7,929 nucleotides of DNA, from the IMG/VR virus record IMGVR_UViG_2690316273_000016; one strand, given 5' to 3'. The translations under genes were made by a program, and so were the position numbers. This DNA comes from a virus. Its lineage: Duplodnaviria > Heunggongvirae > Uroviricota > Caudoviricetes. The notes under the pieces are model-generated. The model did no database searches. It worked only from the letters and a program-made list of their open reading frames with translations, and had not been told where the DNA came from. This document shows positions 1 through 7,929 of this stretch, piece by piece (the stretch's first letter is position 1; each line of letters begins with the position of its first letter).

Positions 1-1074
1 ATGGGAAGAGGGACACAACCTGAACGCGTTAAGCTGGGAAATTATCCCGATCTGAGTCTGAAAGCAGCCAGGGAAAAAGCCGCCCAGTGTCGCGCATGGC
101 TGGCTGAGGGGAAAAATCCACGCTATGAACTGAATTACACCATGCAGGAAGCGTTAAAGCCTGTAACGGTTGGCGATGCGCTCACCTATTGGCTTGAGTC
201 GTACGCAAAGGAAAAGCGCACAGATTACGAATCACTGAAAAGCCGGATCAATAAAAACATAATCACCAAAATTGGTGCTATGCCGCTGGATAAATGCGAG
301 CTACGGCACTGGCTGGCCTGCTTTGACCAGGTGGCAAAGCGAACACCTGTTACTGCCGGATTCGTGCTACAGACATGCAAACAGGCGCTTAAGTACTGCC
401 GGAGGCGGCGCTATGTAATCAGTAACGTTCTCGATGATCTGAACGTAGCGGACGTTGGGAAAAAACCGGATATAAGCGAACGTGTCTTAAGCAATAAAGA
501 GCTGGGCGAATTATTGCAGGCACTGGACAAAAAAATATTTTCCCCCTACTACATCGCGCTAATCCGCCTCCTGATTGTGTTCGGATGCCGGACGGTCGAA
601 CTTAGGTTATCGGAGATCGGCGAGTGGGATTTTACCGAAATGCTCTGGACCGTTCCGAAGGAGCACAGCAAAACGAAGGTAGCCATATTCCGGCCTATAC
701 CGGAAGCAATACTGCCGTTCATCACGCAGCTGGTGGAGCAGAACAGGCACACGGGCTTATTGCTGGGGGAAGTGAAACAGGAGGCCAGCGTATCGCAGTA
801 TGGAAGATTAGCGCACAGGAGGCTTAATCACCCCCACTGGTCACTGCATGACATCCGGCGCACCTTTACAACCATGCTGAACGATTTAGGCGTTGATCCG
901 CATGTCGTGGAGCAGCTTACAGGACACCAGATGCCAGGGATGCAACGAGTCTATAATCACTCCCGTTATCTGGATGCGAAACGCAATGCGCTGGATATGT
1001 GGACGGAGCGGTTAGGGATACTGGCGGGAGCACATGAAAACGTAACCGCACTACCAGCAGCCAGAAGAAAATAA
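1..1074 (+). CDS. int: P4-family tyrosine integrase (site-specific recombinase), 5'-partial
   Basis: Open frame runs from the window edge to TAA at 1072-1074. Translation carries tyrosine-recombinase catalytic features: HxxR box (WSLHDIRRTF), a downstream His (LTGHQ) and a C-terminal Tyr (RVYNHSRY). The visible N-terminus (KLGNYPDLSLKAAREKAAQCRAWLAEGKNP) aligns with an internal part of the P4-type N-terminal domain, so about 50 residues are probably missing; the ATG at 1-3 is likely an internal Met. Confidence 0.9.
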   Translation: MGRGTQPERVKLGNYPDLSLKAAREKAAQCRAWLAEGKNPRYELNYTMQEALKPVTVGDALTYWLESYAKEKRTDYESLKSRINKNIITKIGAMPLDKCELRHWLACFDQVAKRTPVTAGFVLQTCKQALKYCRRRRYVISNVLDDLNVADVGKKPDISERVLSNKELGELLQALDKKIFSPYYIALIRLLIVFGCRTVELRLSEIGEWDFTEMLWTVPKEHSKTKVAIFRPIPEAILPFITQLVEQNRHTGLLLGEVKQEASVSQYGRLAHRRLNHPHWSLHDIRRTFTTMLNDLGVDPHVVEQLTGHQMPGMQRVYNHSRYLDAKRNALDMWTERLGILAGAHENVTALPAARRK

Positions 1075-1449: not shown

Positions 1450-1638
1450 GTGTTAAGCACAGATCGCTTTATACGTGAAAAAGAATGTCAGCAACTTACA
1501 GGCCTGAGCCGCTCATGTCGGTATCGCCTGGAGAAGACCGGACAATTCCCATCACGGCGTAAACTCGGCGGTCGTTCCGTTGGCTGGTCTTTATCCGAAG
1601 TTCTGGCATGGAAGGACAGCCGCGAGGCAGTTCACTAA
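1450..1638 (+). CDS. alpA: AlpA-family phage transcriptional regulator (HTH)
   Basis: 62 codons, GTG start at 1450 four nt after GGGGG (1441-1445), stop TAA 1636-1638. The segment LTGLSRSCRYRLEKTGQFPSRRKLGGRSVGWSLSEVLAW fits the AlpA family pattern (TG-S--Y---G-FP---LG-RSVGW--EV--W). Position directly downstream of a P4-type integrase is typical. Confidence 0.85.
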   Translation: MLSTDRFIREKECQQLTGLSRSCRYRLEKTGQFPSRRKLGGRSVGWSLSEVLAWKDSREAVH

Positions 1639-2608: not shown

Positions 2609-2812
2609 ATGAGAAATTATACCAGACACCCGCAAGGGCGGGACTCGTACAACCTGAATAAATACATCTGGCGTTTTATCGCCCTGAGCACGGCACAACC
2701 GCGCGTGATTACCATTGAGGCCACCAGCGAACAGGAAGCGCGTCAGCAATCTCCTGATGGCTGCGTGATGGTATTCGCTGCCCGTATTCGCCAGGGGGAA
2801 CACCATGATTAA
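2609..2812 (+). CDS. Hypothetical small protein (67 aa), first gene of the rightward replication operon
   Basis: ATG at 2609 with GAGG 5-6 nt upstream; stop TAA 2810-2812 overlaps the next start (ATGATTAA). It is the only protein-like part of the 373-aa stop-free frame. An in-frame ATG at 2519 is possible but lacks an SD. Confidence 0.55.
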   Translation: MRNYTRHPQGRDSYNLNKYIWRFIALSTAQPRVITIEATSEQEARQQSPDGCVMVFAARIRQGEHHD

Positions 2813-3014
2813 CCTGTCACTTACCGACCTTAACCGCGTTCAGTTTCGTGAGAAATTTACCGGGCAGCTACTGGTCAATGTGGATAAAGGTCGCGTGGTG
2901 TGTAATTACCACCTGCCAGATGAAGCCATTGTCGCAACAAGGGAATCATTACAGGAACTCGCAGAACGTGCCGGAATGATTAATGCGAATATTCAGGGGG
3001 TGAGACATGCATAA
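2805..3014 (+). CDS. Hypothetical small protein (69 aa), paralog of the next gene
   Basis: ATG 2805 preceded by GGGG; stop overlaps the next start. Shares a motif block with the downstream ORF (TGQLLVNVDKGRVVCNYHL versus TGRVLVYLEKGRVKCQCRL). Confidence 0.65.
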   Translation: MINLSLTDLNRVQFREKFTGQLLVNVDKGRVVCNYHLPDEAIVATRESLQELAERAGMINANIQGVRHA

Positions 3015-3219
3015 TCATGAATCGCACTTACCTGTAGTGCTGAATGTGCCGTCAGATTATACGGGGCGCGTACTGGTGTATCTGGAAAAAGGCCGGGTTA
3101 AATGTCAGTGCCGTTTAATGGAAAACGAATTTATCAGCACTCTTGCGGGATTTTCTGAAATGCTCACTAAATCGGGTGTTAGTGCAGACCAGCTACGCGG
3201 GGGCGATTATGCGAAATAA
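3007..3219 (+). CDS. Hypothetical small protein (70 aa), paralog of the previous gene
   Basis: ATG 3007 six nt after GGGGG; overlaps the previous stop (ATGcaTAA). Shares the TG--LV---KGRV-C block with 2805-3014. Confidence 0.65.
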   Translation: MHNHESHLPVVLNVPSDYTGRVLVYLEKGRVKCQCRLMENEFISTLAGFSEMLTKSGVSADQLRGGDYAK

Positions 3220-3433: not shown

Positions 3434-3721
3434 ATGAAAAAGAAAAATTCTGGCTTTACTGCCAGCGGCCCCGCTCGGCCTGAAATCCGCCCCGGCGATA
3501 TTTTCCGGGATAACTATGGCGGCACGGTAACGATAAAAGGCGTGGCAGAACGGCGCATCACTTACCGCCGTGATGGCTACGAATATGACTGCGTGATGCC
3601 TGTTTATCAGTTCCGGCGTGATTTCACGCTGGTGGGCCATCGTAAAGCCGTAAATCAGAAACGTGCAGCAAGTCATATCCGCAAAATTCGTGAAATGCTG
3701 GTCGCAGGGGGTAAAAAATGA
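3434..3721 (+). CDS. Hypothetical basic protein (95 aa)
   Basis: ATG 3434 with GGAG 9 nt upstream; stop TGA 3719-3721 overlaps the primase ATG at 3718 (ATGA). Protein-like composition, basic C-terminus. Confidence 0.6.
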   Translation: MKKKNSGFTASGPARPEIRPGDIFRDNYGGTVTIKGVAERRITYRRDGYEYDCVMPVYQFRRDFTLVGHRKAVNQKRAASHIRKIREMLVAGGKK

Positions 3722-5532
3722 AACTGGCACCGAACGTAAAACAGCAGTCACGCGGCATAAAACACAAAGAAACAGAAGTCATTATTTTTGCGGGTAGTGA
3801 TGCCTGGTCACACGCAAAACAATGGCAGGAACATGACGCGCGTATGGCCGGAGATAATGAGCCTCCTGTGTGGCTTGGGGAGCAGCAGTTATCCGAACTG
3901 GATAAGCTGCAAATTGTGCCGGAAGGCAGAAAATCCGTGCGCATATTCAGGGCCGGATATCTTGCGCCAGTAATGATAAAGGCGATTGGTCAGAAGCTGG
4001 CGGCGGCAGGCGTACAGGATGCAAATTTTTATCCTGAGGGTATGCACGGTCAGGAGGTGCAGAACTGGCGCGGATATCTGGCCCGTGAGCGCCAGAATCT
4101 TTCTGATGGTCTGGTGATTCAGCTTCCTGTTAAGAAAAAAACAGAAGACAGCGCCGCACCACTGGCGCTTAACCAGATGGGAGCAAGCCAGCGCGGCGAA
4201 GTTCTCCTGGCACATTATGGCGGTGAACTGGCGATTCATGCCGACTCTGACACTGTTCACCATTACAACGGCGTTGTATGGGAGCCGATTCAGGATAAAG
4301 AGTTACAGCGTGCTATGGCGCAGATTTTCATTGATGCGGAGATCAGCTATTCGCAGAACGCCATTAAATCGGCGGTCGATACCATGAAGTTAAGTTTGCC
4401 TGTAATGGGGAATACAGCCCGTAACCTGATTGGATTCAGTAACGGGGTATTTGATACCAGAACAGGTAATTTTCGGGAGCATAACAAAAACGACTGGTTG
4501 TTAATTGCCAGTGAATTACCTTTCAGCCCACCAGCAGAGGGGGAAACGCTGGCAACACATGCGCCGAATTTCTGGAAGTGGTTACGCTGCTCGGTGGCAG
4601 AGAATGACCGCAAGACGGATCGCGTGCTGGCTGCATTATTCATGGTGCTGGCGAACCGGTACGACTGGCAGTTATTCATTGAGGTAACAGGTCCAGGGGG
4701 AAGTGGTAAAAGCGTGATGGCGGAGATTTGCACTATGCTGGCGGGTAAGGCCAACACAGTATCGGCAAGCATGAAGGCGCTGGAAGATGCAAGGGAACGC
4801 GCGTTAGTGGTTGGCTTTTCGCTGATTATCATGCCGGATATGACCCGCTACGCTGGTGATGGCGCAGGAATTAAGGCCATTACAGGCGGTGACAAGGTGG
4901 CAATCGACCCGAAGCATAAAGCCCCCTACTCAACACGCATTCAGGCGGTCGTGCTGGCGGTGAACAATAACGCCATGTCATTCAGTGACCGCAGCGGGGG
5001 GATCTCACGTCGTCGGGTGATATTCAATTTTTCGGAGGTTGTACCGGAGAACGAGCGCGACCCCATGCTGGCAGAAAAAATAGAAGGAGAGCTGGCGGTT
5101 GTGATTCGCCATCTGCTTACTCGTTTTTCTGACCAGGACGAAGCTAAACGCCTGCTGTATGAGCAGCAGAAATCAGAAGAAGCTCTGGTGATAAAACGCG
5201 AGGGCGATTCGCTGGTGGACTTCTGTGGCTATCTCATGTCGTCGGTAATGTGTGATGGTCTGTTAGTGGGTAATGCCGAAATTATTCCGTTCAGTCCGCG
5301 CAGGTATCTTTATCACGCCTATCTGGCATATATGAGGGCACACGGATTCGGTAAACCTGTAACACTGACGCGCTTCGGTAAAGATATGCCGGGGGCAATG
5401 GCGGAATATGGCAGGGAGTATATAAAACGGAAAACGAAGCACGGTTTGCGTTCAAATGTGACACTGACAGAGGATTCAGAAGACTGTATGCCATCATGTG
5501 CATCGGTCACAAATGACGACAGCAAAAATTAA
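3718..5532 (+). CDS. P4-family phage/plasmid primase C-terminal domain protein (D5-like SF3 NTPase/helicase); element replication initiator
   Basis: 604-aa ORF. Walker A GPGGSGKS (…FIEVTGPGGSGKSVMAEI…). Flanking blocks (NGVFDTRTGNFREH…, …ITGGDKVAIDPKHKAPYS…, …RRRVIFNFSEVVPENERDPMLAEKI…) match the conserved layout of P4-family primase C-terminal / D5_N-type proteins. SD GGGGG precedes the start. Confidence 0.88.
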   Translation: MKLAPNVKQQSRGIKHKETEVIIFAGSDAWSHAKQWQEHDARMAGDNEPPVWLGEQQLSELDKLQIVPEGRKSVRIFRAGYLAPVMIKAIGQKLAAAGVQDANFYPEGMHGQEVQNWRGYLARERQNLSDGLVIQLPVKKKTEDSAAPLALNQMGASQRGEVLLAHYGGELAIHADSDTVHHYNGVVWEPIQDKELQRAMAQIFIDAEISYSQNAIKSAVDTMKLSLPVMGNTARNLIGFSNGVFDTRTGNFREHNKNDWLLIASELPFSPPAEGETLATHAPNFWKWLRCSVAENDRKTDRVLAALFMVLANRYDWQLFIEVTGPGGSGKSVMAEICTMLAGKANTVSASMKALEDARERALVVGFSLIIMPDMTRYAGDGAGIKAITGGDKVAIDPKHKAPYSTRIQAVVLAVNNNAMSFSDRSGGISRRRVIFNFSEVVPENERDPMLAEKIEGELAVVIRHLLTRFSDQDEAKRLLYEQQKSEEALVIKREGDSLVDFCGYLMSSVMCDGLLVGNAEIIPFSPRRYLYHAYLAYMRAHGFGKPVTLTRFGKDMPGAMAEYGREYIKRKTKHGLRSNVTLTEDSEDCMPSCASVTNDDSKN

Positions 5533-5544
5533 ACTTATGGAATA

Positions 5545-5775
5545 ACTGTTCACCACTGTTCACCCTGTTATAAATATCTTTTATATCAGTACATTATAGG
5601 GTGAACAGTTATTTGTGAACTGTTCACCAAACTATTCACTGTTCACCTTTTTGATTATTTATTGAGCTTTAAGGGTGAACAGTGGTGAACAGTTGGTGAA
5701 TAGTTTTTGTGAAACTGTTCACCCCTTAACATTATGAATAAAAAGGGAAAATCTCAAAAGGTGAACAGGTGAAGG
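5545..5775. repeat. Iteron array in both orientations (CTGTTCACC / GGTGAACAG) with AT-rich spacers; putative replication origin
   Basis: Forward TGTTCACC at 5547-5554, 5557-5564 (two tandem 10-bp ACTGTTCACC units), 5621-5628, 5640-5647, 5716-5723, plus variant CTATTCACT at 5632-5640. Reverse GGTGAACAG at 5600-5608, 5674-5682, 5684-5692, 5760-5768, variant GGTGAATAG at 5695-5703, half-site GTGAAC at 5615-5620. Lies directly 3' of the primase gene. Confidence 0.6.
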
Positions 5776-5819: not shown

Positions 5820-6065
5820 GTGACAACGAAGCACGCAAAAAAACCACAATCTCACGCCCTTGATTTGACAGAACACTGGCTGAGGGTGGCGATAAAAATC
5901 ATCGACCGCAACGCGGGAGAAGGGTACGCAAAAGCACATCCCGAACTGATAAGCGCATTCATGACCACGGCGGCAGCAAACTTTGCCACGCTGACAGAAC
6001 GGGAGATTGCCGAAGCGGAACAGGTGACAACCATCAACGTTAAAACCGGAGAGCAGACAGCATGA
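5820..6065 (+). CDS. Hypothetical protein (81 aa), first gene of the accessory operon
   Basis: GTG start at 5820, GAGGT (5808-5812) 7 nt upstream; stop TGA 6063-6065 overlaps the ssb ATG at 6062 (ATGA). No family recognised by eye. Confidence 0.5.
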   Translation: MTTKHAKKPQSHALDLTEHWLRVAIKIIDRNAGEGYAKAHPELISAFMTTAAANFATLTEREIAEAEQVTTINVKTGEQTA

Positions 6066-6487
6066 CAGCACAGATAGCGGCTTACGGGCGGCTGGTGGCT
6101 GACCCGCAGTTAAAGACCACCAGCAAAGGGACACAAATGGCGATGGCGAGTATGGCGGTTCCCCTGCCGTGCAGCCAGGCAGATGACGGAACGGCGACGA
6201 TGTGGTTATCTGTCCTGGCGTTTGGCAGACAGGCCGACGCACTGGCAAAACACCACAAAGGCGAACTGGTGAGCGTGGCGGGTAACATGCAGGTGAGCCA
6301 GTGGACAGGCCAGAACGGGGAAACGCGGCAGGGCTGGCAGGTTATTGCAGACAGCGTAATCAGTGCGCGAACGGCGCGACCGGGCGGCAAAAAAGGTCAA
6401 CAGGGCCAGGCCACTGACGCACTGAACAGGGCAAAACAACAGACAAGCCAGCACGATGACCCGTACGGGGATAACATACCGTTTTAA
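6062..6487 (+). CDS. ssb: Single-stranded DNA-binding protein (SSB), OB-fold with acidic C-terminal tail
   Basis: 141 aa. N-terminal and core blocks parallel canonical SSB (IAAYGRLVADPQL resembles VILVGNLGQDPEV; MWLSVLAFGRQADALAKHHKGELVSVAGNMQVSQWTGQNGETRQGWQVIADSV resembles the SSB L45/OB core). A low-complexity G/Q-rich linker precedes a C-terminal …DDPYGDNIPF matching the SSB partner-binding tip (D-I-P-F). Confidence 0.85.
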   Translation: MTAQIAAYGRLVADPQLKTTSKGTQMAMASMAVPLPCSQADDGTATMWLSVLAFGRQADALAKHHKGELVSVAGNMQVSQWTGQNGETRQGWQVIADSVISARTARPGGKKGQQGQATDALNRAKQQTSQHDDPYGDNIPF

Positions 6488-6523
6488 TTCACAACAGCGA
6501 ACAGAGTAATTACAGGGGAAGGC

Positions 6524-7054
6524 ATGACAACGCTGACCATTAACCGGAAGCCGAAAGGCATTTACGGCACGCCGCAGAAAACGACGCAGGCGGCGCAAGA
6601 GCAGGATAAAACCACATCGGCGCATAAAGTGATACCCGGCAATCAGAACGCACAGCAGAAGCCCACAGGGGCGACACCGTGGCAGCATATGACCAAAAGG
6701 CAGCGCAAAAACCGCCGACGCGTTAACCGCCTCACTGAGATGTGGCCTGACTTATTCAGCCATAAAGCACCGAAGCCGCTTAAGGTGGGGATATTCGACG
6801 ACCTGATGCAGGATATCGCCGTCAGGGGGCTGGCATTCGGGCCGGGGGTATTACGTGCGACGCTGGCATCCTATGCGCAGTCTCCGCGCTATTACCGCGC
6901 CCTGATAGCTGGTGGCGCACGTTACGATCTGAAAGGCCAGCCATGTGGGGAAGTGACACCACAGGAACAGCAGGAGGCAGAAACACGGCTGATGGTGCTG
7001 AATGAGAAGCACAAGCGCCAGCGCCGGGCAGCAAAGGGGGATACATGCCAGTGA
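6524..7054 (+). CDS. FinO/ProQ-domain protein (putative RNA chaperone)
   Basis: 176 aa. Basic, low-complexity N-terminal half, then a block MWPDLFSHKAPKPLKVGIFDDLMQDIAVRGLAFGPGVLRATLASYAQSPRYYRALIAGGARYDLKGQPCGEVTPQEQQEAE that aligns by eye with the F-plasmid FinO core (WWPGLF…GIRDVLLEDVAQR…[40 protein letters not shown]). Stop overlaps the next ATG. Confidence 0.8.
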   Translation: MTTLTINRKPKGIYGTPQKTTQAAQEQDKTTSAHKVIPGNQNAQQKPTGATPWQHMTKRQRKNRRRVNRLTEMWPDLFSHKAPKPLKVGIFDDLMQDIAVRGLAFGPGVLRATLASYAQSPRYYRALIAGGARYDLKGQPCGEVTPQEQQEAETRLMVLNEKHKRQRRAAKGDTCQ

Positions 7055-7293
7055 CATTTGAAGAAGTTCAGCAACATAAAAAGCTTCATGGTTTTGATGA
7101 TCTGGAAACCACGACAGCAAAAAAATATCGTCGGTTGCTTTCTTCCGATGCGTTATTTTTTGTGGATCATCATGATTTTCTGCGTAGCTCACTGACCGGG
7201 GAAATTTTCGCAACCAACCGTGAGCAGGTGGAAGCGATGATCGAATATTTGTGGAAAATAAGACGCAGAATGCGGGAGCCAGTGAAACAATAA
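7045..7293 (+). CDS. Hypothetical protein (82 aa), last gene of the accessory operon
   Basis: ATG 7045 four nt after GGGGG (7036-7040), overlapping the upstream stop (TGA 7052-7054); stop TAA 7291-7293, followed immediately by an intrinsic terminator. No family recognised. Confidence 0.6.
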   Translation: MPVTFEEVQQHKKLHGFDDLETTTAKKYRRLLSSDALFFVDHHDFLRSSLTGEIFATNREQVEAMIEYLWKIRRRMREPVKQ

Positions 7294-7302
7294 AGCGATA
7301 AA

Positions 7303-7329
7303 GGCCCGGATTTTTTCCGGGCCTTTTTT
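7303..7329 (+). terminator. Rho-independent terminator closing the accessory operon
   Basis: Stem GGCCCGGA (7303-7310) / TCCGGGCC (7316-7323), loop ttttt, then TTTTTT (7324-7329), ten nt after the stop of the last ORF. Confidence 0.75.
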
Positions 7330-7347
7330 CAGGTTTTGTAAATTATT

Positions 7348-7377
7348 TGTTCGTGGTTGTTCCAGGTTGTTCGGTGA
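7348..7377. repeat. Three tandem 10-bp units TTGTTC-N4 (ttgttcgtgg / ttgttccagg / ttgttcggtg), inverted copy of the 1121-1170 array
   Basis: Read directly; its reverse complement (caccgaacaacctggaacaaccacgaacaa) matches 1148-1166. Sits just upstream of a candidate -35 at 7390. Confidence 0.5.
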
Positions 7378-7389
7378 TTCTGGCTGATG

Positions 7390-7417
7390 TTTACATACTG
7401 ATTTTTATGTATATGTT
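7390..7417 (+). promoter_or_regulatory. Candidate sigma70-like promoter for the capsid operon
   Basis: -35 TTTACA (7390-7395), 16-bp spacer, -10 TATGTT (7412-7417). Predicts a leader of about 140 nt before the ATG at 7567. Weak, sequence-only. Confidence 0.3.
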
Positions 7418-7566
7418 GGCGTGTGGCACTCAGACGTGAGCCGCCACAATGCCGCCTGACCCCCTGCGCGATGCCGGGTTGATCTGCGAGATGCCGAGAG
7501 TGTCGGGCGGCGCTCCCCCCGTGTTGGTTTCACGTCCTGAATCTTAACCAATGCGAGAAAACCTTC

Positions 7567-7929
7567 ATGAAGAAATTAATCGAACTCCGCCAGCAAAAAA
7601 CCGCCCTGAAAAACCAGATGCGATCCCTGCTGGAAAAAGCCGACAGTGAAAACCGCAGCCTGAACGATGACGAAGGCAAACAGTTTGATGAACTGCGTGC
7701 AAAAGCCGATTCCCTCGACACAGAAATTTCCCGCCTCGAGTCTGTGGCTGATGAAGAACGTAACCAGCCTGGTGTTCCCGTCGAAGATAAAATCACCAAA
7801 AATGAGCTACGCTCTTACATTCTGACCGGGGAAACCCGCAACCTGTCCGGCAGTGTTCCGGCTGATGGTGGTTATACGGTTATCCCGGAACTGAACAGAG
7901 AAATTATGCGTCAGCTTTCTGATGAGTCG
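7567..7929 (+). CDS. HK97-family major capsid protein, N-terminal 121 aa (3'-partial, runs off the window)
   Basis: Not in the ORF track (no stop inside the window). ATG at 7567, open in frame to 7929. Translation: a charged coiled-coil-like N-terminus (MKKLIELRQQKTALKNQMRSLLEKADSENRSLNDDEGKQFDELRAKADSLDTEISRLES…) followed by …PADGGYTVIPELNREIMRQLSDES, matching the characteristic GGYLVP-E---I--L motif near the start of HK97-fold capsid proteins. Confidence 0.7.
   Translation, partial: MKKLIELRQQKTALKNQMRSLLEKADSENRSLNDDEGKQFDELRAKADSLDTEISRLESVADEERNQPGVPVEDKITKNELRSYILTGETRNLSGSVPADGGYTVIPELNREIMRQLSDES

Follow-up and report, generated by a model that had tools for sequence, protein, structure and literature searches.

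A mosaic segment with an optional FinO-domain gene between the iteron origin and the capsid module of a putative capsid-forming phage-inducible chromosomal island

Introduction

Among the RNA chaperones of bacteria, FinO-domain proteins constitute one of three major classes, with plasmid FinO and FopA and chromosomal ProQ, RocC and NMB1681 as the characterised members. They bind the hairpins of intrinsic terminators together with the flanking sequence (PMC12001967), and phage- and plasmid-derived homologues integrated in chromosomes are mentioned, without detail, in a review of FinO/ProQ evolution (PMC9977716). In satellites of the phage-inducible chromosomal island (PICI) type, full-text searches of the literature brought up FinO/ProQ-like genes as annotations only, namely in a PICI of E. 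cloacae (PMC13612085) and in episomal capsid-forming satellites of Vibrio (PMC13230959). Further, a proQ-like/PerC-like gene pair had been listed by 2010 on a small tRNA-Pro island of enteroaggregative E. coli (EAEC) 042 (PMC2808357), PerC-like genes are considered to be frequent cargo of PICIs, and the single-stranded DNA-binding protein (SSB) is counted, along with the primase and the origin (ori), as part of the Gram-negative PICIs' replication zone (PMC10111431). Here, we analyse a segment of a 7,929-nt stretch of viral DNA (IMG/VR record IMGVR_UViG_2690316273_000016; the whole stretch is referred to as the window), in which four co-oriented open reading frames (ORFs), coding for an 81-aa protein (orf81), an SSB (ssb), a FinO-like protein (finO) and an 82-aa protein (orf82), lie between an iteron origin and an HK97-family capsid gene and are closed by a strong terminator.

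Judged by its gene content, the window makes up the left half of a capsid-forming PICI (cf-PICI) of ~14 kb, whose insertion site lies between allE and allC. An earlier note on this DNA had read the four genes as one accessory operon pairing the SSB with the FinO-like protein. We propose, with a probability of roughly 0.6, that the segment forms the part of the cf-PICI's early (replication) transcription unit that is farthest from the promoter, and that the segment is a mosaic of a replication accessory, an optional FinO cassette and the edge of the capsid module. A full-text literature search brought up no study on the function of the satellite FinO clade described here.

Results

Gene order of the four-gene segment

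A Shine-Dalgarno sequence is visible before each of the four ORFs, and RefSeq annotates the same four coding sequences in near-identical islands. Pairwise dN/dS values among the collected alleles ranged from 0.11 to 0.27 (Table 1), which is indicative of purifying selection on all four and therefore of real genes, in agreement with the ORFs proposed in the earlier note. The four had been described as overlapping, which holds for two of the three junctions: orf81 and ssb share an ATGA stop/start overlap and finO and orf82 overlap by 10 nt, but ssb and finO are separated by a 36-nt gap. The promoter scan predicted no plus-strand promoter between the origin and orf81.

Gene order was surveyed in ~270 related loci. 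IMG/VR loci were fetched independently for each query (76 with the FinO-like protein, 46 with orf82, 62 with the capsid protein, 50 with the island PerC and, for ssb, the best 80 of 405) by exact peptide words confirmed by tblastn, near-identical contigs being included, and annotated E. coli regions were added to them. Genes were labelled by tblastn against a chosen reference set, on which all neighbour assignments rest; the upstream neighbour stayed unlabelled at 15 loci. Genome counts refer to 5,426 complete E. coli genomes.

The content of the slot between the origin and the capsid module differed among islands, as expected of the cargo-type variable position that the earlier note had seen here: nothing, orf81-ssb, ssb-perC, ssb-finO, finO-perC, or finO followed by a gene for a 138-aa protein and perC. 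Upstream of finO we found ssb at 32 loci and the primase/origin directly at 24; downstream lay a PerC-family gene (55 loci), orf82 (20) or the 138-aa protein and then PerC (4). The island PerC neighbour matches PF06069 (3.4e-36), and finO was located directly 5' of it in 50/50 loci fetched by PerC. Among the best 80 of 405 ssb loci, only 23 carried finO, the commonest setting being a classical PICI in which orf81-ssb is followed by a lambda-type capsid gene and the small terminase. Directly preceding orf82 were finO (19/46 loci), perC (15/46) or ssb (12/46), and, in other cf-PICIs, the replicase itself.

The genome counts followed the same pattern. Matches to ssb were present in 1,806 of the genomes (33%), matches to finO at at least 80% coverage or identity in 337-385 (~6-7%) and matches to orf82 in 135, so that ssb mostly occurs without finO (1,806 genomes vs. 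at most 385). All four genes, at a coverage of at least 80%, were found together in 54 genomes (1%).

Taken together, gene order suggests a mosaic region in which three pieces assort independently of one another, namely orf81-ssb, the optional FinO-like cassette, and orf82 with the terminator. Within cf-PICIs, the orders "ssb finO orf82", "ssb perC orf82" and "ssb orf82" were all present, and "finO perC orf82" was found at none of the surveyed cf-PICI loci. FinO and PerC thus appear to be alternatives in these islands, the FinO-like gene of the window filling the slot that PerC, or nothing, occupies in sister cf-PICIs.

These data bear directly on the interpretation of the four genes as a single cargo operon, in which the SSB and the FinO-like protein would cooperate and an RNA-based layer would control the island switch or interfere with the helper phage. 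In its favour, the genes lie close together in one orientation, their junctions overlap or are tight, they share a terminator, the slot varies among islands, and FinO-family proteins are known repressors of mobile elements (PMC9977716). However, the four are not co-conserved: ssb is mostly found without finO, finO often without ssb, orf82 tracks the capsid gene, and the full arrangement is restricted to 1% of genomes. Further, PADLOC defence-system models matched none of the four proteins (0 families at E <= 0.01), and a defence-system identity was accordingly rejected for each of them. The operon as a functional unit, together with a meaningful SSB-FinO pairing, therefore failed in the synteny survey that the earlier note itself had proposed, and we consider this interpretation very unlikely. 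What did stand is the compact arrangement as such, between the origin and the capsid gene and ending in a strong terminator.

Two further observations were made in the survey. Three unrelated replicases, each with its own iterons, occur upstream of the segment: a 707-aa protein (locus L012, 7205-9328), a RepA-family helicase (L004, 6645-8051) and the D5/P4 primase of the window (3718-5532). All three are joined to identical downstream ssb-finO-orf82-capsid cassettes, which points to the origin as a site of recombination breakpoints. In a few classical PICIs (L075-L078; e.g., L075 9511-9927), the 138-aa protein encoded between finO and perC has no Pfam match, and the start of its gene overlaps the finO stop by 19 nt.

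The FinO-like protein

The FinO-like protein matches PF04352 with 83.5 bits (1.2e-23; cutoff 27), the match spanning its residues 64-168 and positions 5-108 of the 109 in the profile, and its relatives of solved structure are the N-terminal domain of ProQ (1e-11), FinO (9e-11), NMB1681 and RocC. This profile search upholds the family call that the earlier note had made from motifs in the translation. The protein comprises an N-terminal LTINRKPKGIY motif, a hypervariable Q/T-rich linker, a basic TKRQRKNRRR stretch (57-66), the FinO domain (~64-168) and a basic tail; the motif, the hypervariable linker, the basic stretch and the domain are features of the entire clade. Residues Y123 and R133 align with Y70 and R80 of ProQ (Y146 and R157 of FopA), which have been reported to be essential for RNA binding (PMC7491321), and both show a conservation of at least 90% across 34 members of the clade. 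In contrast, the NCBIfam models for the named proteins scored far below their cutoffs: 65.5 bits vs. 136 for FinO, and 58.4 vs. 127 for the ProQ equivalog NF003434, where the match was confined to the N-terminal domain region. The protein belongs to the family and is yet neither FinO, ProQ nor FopA.

The clade consists of chromosomal, island-borne proteins of Escherichia, Shigella, Salmonella and Citrobacter that are 55-95% identical to the FinO-like protein of the window, and none of the 1,513 E. coli matches has a plasmid location. A scan of genome contigs with the single FinO-like protein returned one locus only, in E. ruysiae. To judge from these comparisons, the clade would represent a new, satellite-specific FinO-domain subfamily whose usual neighbour in gene order is PerC, not SSB.

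Two side observations concern its distribution. The only plasmid match above 60% identity (H61; NZ_OP290546.1, 17586-18085) is located on a 115-kb E. coli plasmid, in a stretch without annotation that may be a PICI or PICI fragment inserted there. In addition, a second, more distant FinO-domain clade, with 60-80% DNA identity over the domain, is found in 757 complete genomes (~14%); in the two examples inspected (L261 6881-7360 and L262 6851-7359), its location is an integrative island of the YagK/YfjJ-YfjI type rather than a PICI, and no PerC gene comes after it.

In all architectures, the conserved sequence 5' of finO extends only ~15-20 nt before the ATG and is essentially the ribosome-binding site. 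This indicates a cassette without a promoter or leader of its own, which depends on transcription from upstream.

The neighbourhood of finO also raises the question of whether its product, with PerC where present, is host-directed lysogenic-conversion cargo acting on the enterocyte effacement locus (LEE) and ler, or on other genes that are H-NS-silenced or controlled by small RNAs. The linkage between the FinO and PerC genes in classical PICIs is tight in both directions, one PICI PerC-like protein silences LEE1 (PMC11773190), the proQ-like/PerC-like pair of EAEC 042 was listed as island cargo (PMC2808357), and chromosomal ProQ represses LEE, an effect that PerC reportedly modulates in enteropathogenic E. 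coli (PMC12426089). However, a promoterless cassette within the operon is expected to be silent until helper induction, given the dependence on AlpA (10.1101/2022.09.08.507074), the island of the window has the FinO-like gene without PerC, and the carrier strains, as judged by record descriptions only, are mostly not LEE-positive pathotypes. We therefore regard a host-directed role as unlikely.

Search for an RNA partner

The scan for promoters and terminators gave no convincing antisense promoter-terminator unit for finO; a weak minus-strand hairpin is located at 6716-6699, for which no promoter was detectable. As no cis-encoded antisense partner was found, the FinO-like protein probably acts in trans, and, as FinO domains bind intrinsic terminators, its most likely ligands are terminator-type structures.

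The terminator closing the segment has the general form of a FinO ligand (A-rich 5' flank, G+C stem and U-tail). Terminators are also present after finO-perC in many, though not all, classes of downstream sequence, and many of them share this form, which we take as a lead only. As a FinO-specific ligand, the operon terminator was rejected, since it stays with orf82 under finO, perC or ssb alike.

The position of finO next to an origin and a replicase (in 24 loci it starts ~20 nt past the last iteron) might suggest a replication or copy-number controller resembling FopA, which would chaperone an island antisense RNA limiting replicase expression, and for which FopA (Inc RNA/repZ of IncI plasmids) and FinO provide precedents (PMC7491321, PMC9977716). 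Against this, the same cassette accompanies the D5 primase, the RepA helicase and the 707-aa protein (L012), with different iterons, which argues against a replicase-specific antisense circuit. Moreover, near the 5' end of the primase gene, no antisense unit made up of a promoter and a terminator was detected, and finO is absent from most PICIs with the same replicases. Copy-number control is thus a very unlikely role for this protein. The FinO-like protein may have an RNA-based regulatory or interference role, as put forward in the earlier note.

orf81 and the island SSB

The SSB call of the earlier note was likewise borne out by profile searches, with 59.4 bits for PF00436 (4e-16; cutoff 26) and 62.7 for TIGR00621 (cutoff 53.95); bacterial SSBs are its relatives of solved structure, with values down to 2e-10. 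The protein carries a flexible Gly/Gln-rich linker before the C-terminal partner-binding tip, which reads DNIPF in the window and DGIPF or DEIPF in variants, the IPF tip being invariant among them. Compared with the E. coli SSB, it is 26% identical and keeps the equivalents of W54, F60 and W88; it lacks W40 and has Leu in place of His55. Among deposited coliphages, no close relative was found, the best matches (~30% identity) being to SSBs of Gram-positive phages. Of the four genes, ssb is under the strongest purifying selection (dN/dS 0.11).

Orf81 is the usual, though non-obligatory, upstream partner of ssb; elsewhere it is absent or swapped for an unrelated 258-aa protein, kinship between the two having been rejected (hhalign probability 1.2%). 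Structure prediction had been proposed in the earlier note for both small proteins: the AlphaFold2 (AF2) model of orf81 is a helical hairpin of moderate quality, with a predicted local distance difference test score (pLDDT) of 73, for which no fold match was found in the PDB, and the model of orf82 (pLDDT 54) was too poor for use.

From its recurrence, orf81-ssb would seem to be a common replication accessory of Gram-negative PICIs, mostly without FinO, and, given its position and family, support of replication after induction is the most economical reading of the island SSB. Alternatively, the SSB might mainly be a conflict factor, either as a decoy or modulator of SSB-sensing defence or as a competitor of helper replication. 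Its lineage is divergent and not shared with known coliphages, ssb is dispensable in many PICIs, and phage SSB-like proteins are reported to control some defence systems (10.64898/2026.04.29.721553). However, ssb is consistently found beside a replicase and ori (see also PMC10111431), and both the strong purifying selection and the retention of the host-partner tip are those of a working replication SSB. A primary function in conflict is therefore improbable.

orf82, the terminator and the capsid-operon promoter

Orf82 is a member of a family of 78 representative clusters with the signature Y28 ... F-VDHH-x-LR ... AT-x-EQLD-LIE, in which 42/42 members match phrog_1957. The family profile gave no meaningful match against Pfam or the PDB. 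A divergent PerC (PF06069) was considered and rejected (no Pfam match, and an hhalign probability of 0.1% against 42 island PerC sequences), as was kinship to the 138-aa alternative partner (hhalign probability 0.3%).

In every architecture, orf82 is placed just upstream of the HK97 capsid gene, including relatives that are only 36-47% identical. As it tracks the capsid module whatever precedes it, at all surveyed loci, it is a core gene of the cf-PICI lineage rather than the cargo that it had been taken for. The terminator behaves in the same way. With a free energy of -25.3 kcal/mol (z = -5.95), it is more stable than any of 200 shuffled sequences (0/200 as stable), and it also folds on the minus strand (-20.8 kcal/mol). 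Together with the 273-nt intergenic region after orf82, it is kept, with pair-preserving changes in the stem, whatever lies 5' of orf82, and even across capsid lineages that are only 69% identical. As it stays with orf82 regardless of the upstream gene, it belongs with the orf82/capsid module.

The intergenic region gave rise to additional observations. Three TTGTTC[G/C] repeats with a 10-bp spacing end ~17 nt upstream of the predicted -35 box of the capsid operon. This sequence occurs eight times in the window (2.9 +/- 1.7 expected), three further copies being located at 1130-1166 on the minus strand in the int-alpA intergenic region, with others at 1323 (plus strand) and 1937 (minus strand). 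Its presence in the early control region as well as near the capsid promoter suggests a single regulator for the two, with AlpA or orf82 as conceivable candidates. Positions 7420-7567 are G+C-rich, are conserved with the 273-nt region even across the capsid lineages with 69% protein identity, and fold marginally better than shuffled sequences (z = -1.8); this part might act as a regulatory leader or as a site of packaging (cos).

Island identity and layout of the window

The remainder of the element was provided by a near-identical island of E. coli AST240 (99.4% identity to the element of the window). In this strain, the four genes are followed by those for the HK97 major capsid protein, prohead protease, portal, head-tail connector, HNH endonuclease, a P27-type small terminase subunit (TerS) and the large terminase subunit (TerL); the annotated region is ~14 kb long, lies between allE and allC and contains neither tail nor lysis genes. 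Pfam matches in the window and the AST240 annotation together thus provide the gene set that defines cf-PICIs, i.e., int, alpA, replicase/ori and capsid through TerL within ~14 kb. In its gene architecture, the element matches the cf-PICIs described in 10.1101/2022.09.08.507074. Islands of this type are further defined by induction through a helper phage and by packaging into small capsids of their own that receive helper tails. Features of the window are compiled in Table 1.

Table 1. Features of the 7,929-nt window and the evidence for each.
Feature	Position	Strand	Basis
Tyrosine integrase	1-1074	+	ORF and profile searches
AlpA regulator	1450-1638	+	ORF and profile searches
D5/P4-type primase-helicase	3718-5532	+	Pfam D5_N/Pox_D5/DUF5906, TIGR01613
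Iteron origin, ~10 copies of ACTGTTCACC/GGTGAACAGT in both orientations	5544-5769	.	Tandem and inverted repeat families, right after the primase-helicase gene
orf81, 81 aa, GTG start, small helical protein, phrog_1231	5820-6065	+	phrog_1231 1.4e-49; dN/dS 0.27
ssb, 141 aa, divergent bacterial-type OB-fold SSB	6062-6487	+	PF00436, TIGR00621, PDB SSBs; dN/dS 0.11
finO, FinO-domain (ProQ/FinO family) protein, 176 aa, PICI-specific clade	6524-7054	+	PF04352; PDB ProQ/FinO/NMB1681/RocC; dN/dS 0.26
orf82, 82 aa, phrog_1957, small all-helical	7045-7293	+	phrog_1957 4e-36; synteny; dN/dS 0.22
Intrinsic terminator, 11-bp stem including 3 A-U pairs, 5-nt loop, U-run	7300-7329	+	Stem 7300-7310/7316-7326
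TTGTTC[G/C] repeats, three, 10-bp-spaced	7347-7373	+	TRF period 10, 2.7 copies
Predicted sigma-70 promoter of the capsid operon	TTTACA 7390 / TATGTT 7417	+	Promoter scan; start of the next transcription unit (7347-7417)
HK97-family major capsid gene, 5' part	7568-7929	+	RefSeq of identical island; full ORF in L012; packaging module runs past the window

The origin stretch is AT-rich (36-42% GC). The early part of the island also carries AlpA and DUF4222 genes, as seen in profile matches, and between AlpA and the primase there are a short minus-strand unit, an Icd-like gene, several small phage-family ORFs and the DUF4222 gene.

Several details of this early part may be added. A 373-aa plus-strand ORF (1691-2812) is probably spurious, and RefSeq calls a fragment of it a pseudogene; opposite to it lie a YlcI/YnfO-family gene and a 62-aa ORF (2409-2230 and 2187-1999, minus strand), a small leftward unit convergent with alpA that ends at terminator-like hairpins (1972-1955 and 1932-1912). 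The adjacent, overlapping genes at 2805-3014 and 3007-3219, in the early operon, both belong to phrog_340 and have the look of a tandem duplication. Downstream of a predicted promoter (TTGACG-17-TAAATT, 2471-2499) lies a leader of ~100 nt with two hairpins, directly before the Icd-like ORF (ATG at 2609). P1 and P4 encode their C4/CI immunity RNAs at this position. The Rfam models for C4 and isrK had no match in the icd-leader region (2471-2612); on its minus strand, a sub-threshold SymR match was obtained at 2536-2608 (32.8 bits vs. a gathering score of 61).

Discussion

In the explanation that we favour, orf81-ssb, finO and orf82 would be co-transcribed from the upstream replication unit. Upon induction by a helper phage, the primase-helicase would open the adjacent iteron origin, the SSB would coat the resulting single-stranded DNA, and its conserved IPF tip would recruit SSB-interacting replication and repair proteins of the host. 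The FinO-like gene would be an optional cassette read from upstream, whose product most likely binds RNA of the hairpin-plus-U-tail type and probably is a post-transcriptional modulator that, during induction, acts in trans on transcripts of the island, the helper phage or the host. Elsewhere, finO would normally be translationally coupled to a PerC-family regulator, which it appears to replace in cf-PICIs. Finally, orf82 and the terminator would form part of the capsid module and mark its left boundary.

Several results weigh against this explanation. Firstly, the counts are skewed to close relatives, because the loci were fetched via exact peptide words and near-identical contigs were kept. 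Secondly, the Rfam search for a cis RNA partner of the FinP/Inc kind yielded sub-threshold matches only, and synonymous-site diversity along finO was flat, with no trough. SymR-like hairpins of the icd leader, considered as a FinO partner, were rejected since they are equally present in islands with and without finO. With regard to the SSB, the missing W40 and His55 imply that its oligomeric state or binding mode may differ from that of the E. coli protein, and, as many PICIs replicate without an ssb of their own, the gene is not essential.

A bolder proposal for the FinO clade is that it acts, alone or coupled to PerC, as a satellite post-transcriptional switch that, upon induction, works in trans by binding hairpins of the terminator type in regulatory RNAs of the helper phage or the host. 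Lambdoid antisense or leader RNAs and transcripts of the LEE/H-NS regulon are examples of ligands that such a switch might use to bias the helper decision or host expression towards the satellite. We think this rather unlikely. If true, however, it would be the first satellite-helper or satellite-host interaction based on an RNA chaperone, and the first FinO-domain protein to have its natural ligands encoded by another genetic element than its own.

Neither the SSB nor the operon structure is out of the ordinary, and the present analysis is of practical value in that it tells apart what is core, what is replication-accessory and what is optional in the slot. With regard to the FinO-like protein, the data point to a sizeable, unstudied satellite-borne clade in ~6-7% of complete E. 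coli genomes, with a sister clade in a further ~14%. As it has no obvious cis-antisense partner, the satellite clade lends itself well to testing how targets are selected by FinO domains, and it could reveal cross-talk at the RNA level between satellites, helper phages and virulence regulons.

Compared with described systems, the replication part of the locus is an ordinary instance of the Gram-negative PICI replication zone (PMC10111431), the island ssb coming directly after the primase and the iteron ori; nothing substantive differs, and the upstream partner orf81 (phrog_1231) had not been described before. The cf-PICI prototype EcCIEDL933 (10.1101/2022.09.08.507074) has the same gene set from int through TerL, no tail genes and a similar size (~14 kb), and genes of the ssb, FinO-like and orf82 types are not discussed in that paper. 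The ROD34 island of EAEC 042 (PMC2808357) is also a small integrase island with an adjacent FinO-like gene (Ec042-2429, proQ-like, next to Ec042-2430, PerC-like). By annotation, it is set apart by its FinO-PerC pair, whereas in the window FinO is followed by orf82 and the capsid module, with no PerC.

At the protein level, ProQ shares the N-terminal FinO domain (1e-11) and the PLKxGIF and RY...GxxRxDLxGxxCGE motifs with the FinO-like protein, which differs in having neither the ProQ linker nor the C-terminal Tudor-like domain and in being encoded by an accessory gene on a mobile island. FinO of F-like plasmids and FopA/YafB of the IncI plasmid pCol1B9 resemble it in being mobile-element FinO-domain proteins of comparable size, with the Tyr and Arg residues and a basic N-terminal extension; identity is ~35% to FinO and ~30% to the best IncI-type plasmid matches. 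The context of FinO on the F plasmid (FinP, traJ and the tra genes) has no counterpart here, the island being chromosomal and without tra genes. Unlike FinO and FopA, the clade described here is chromosomal and satellite-borne and carries an LTINRKPKGIY motif of its own.

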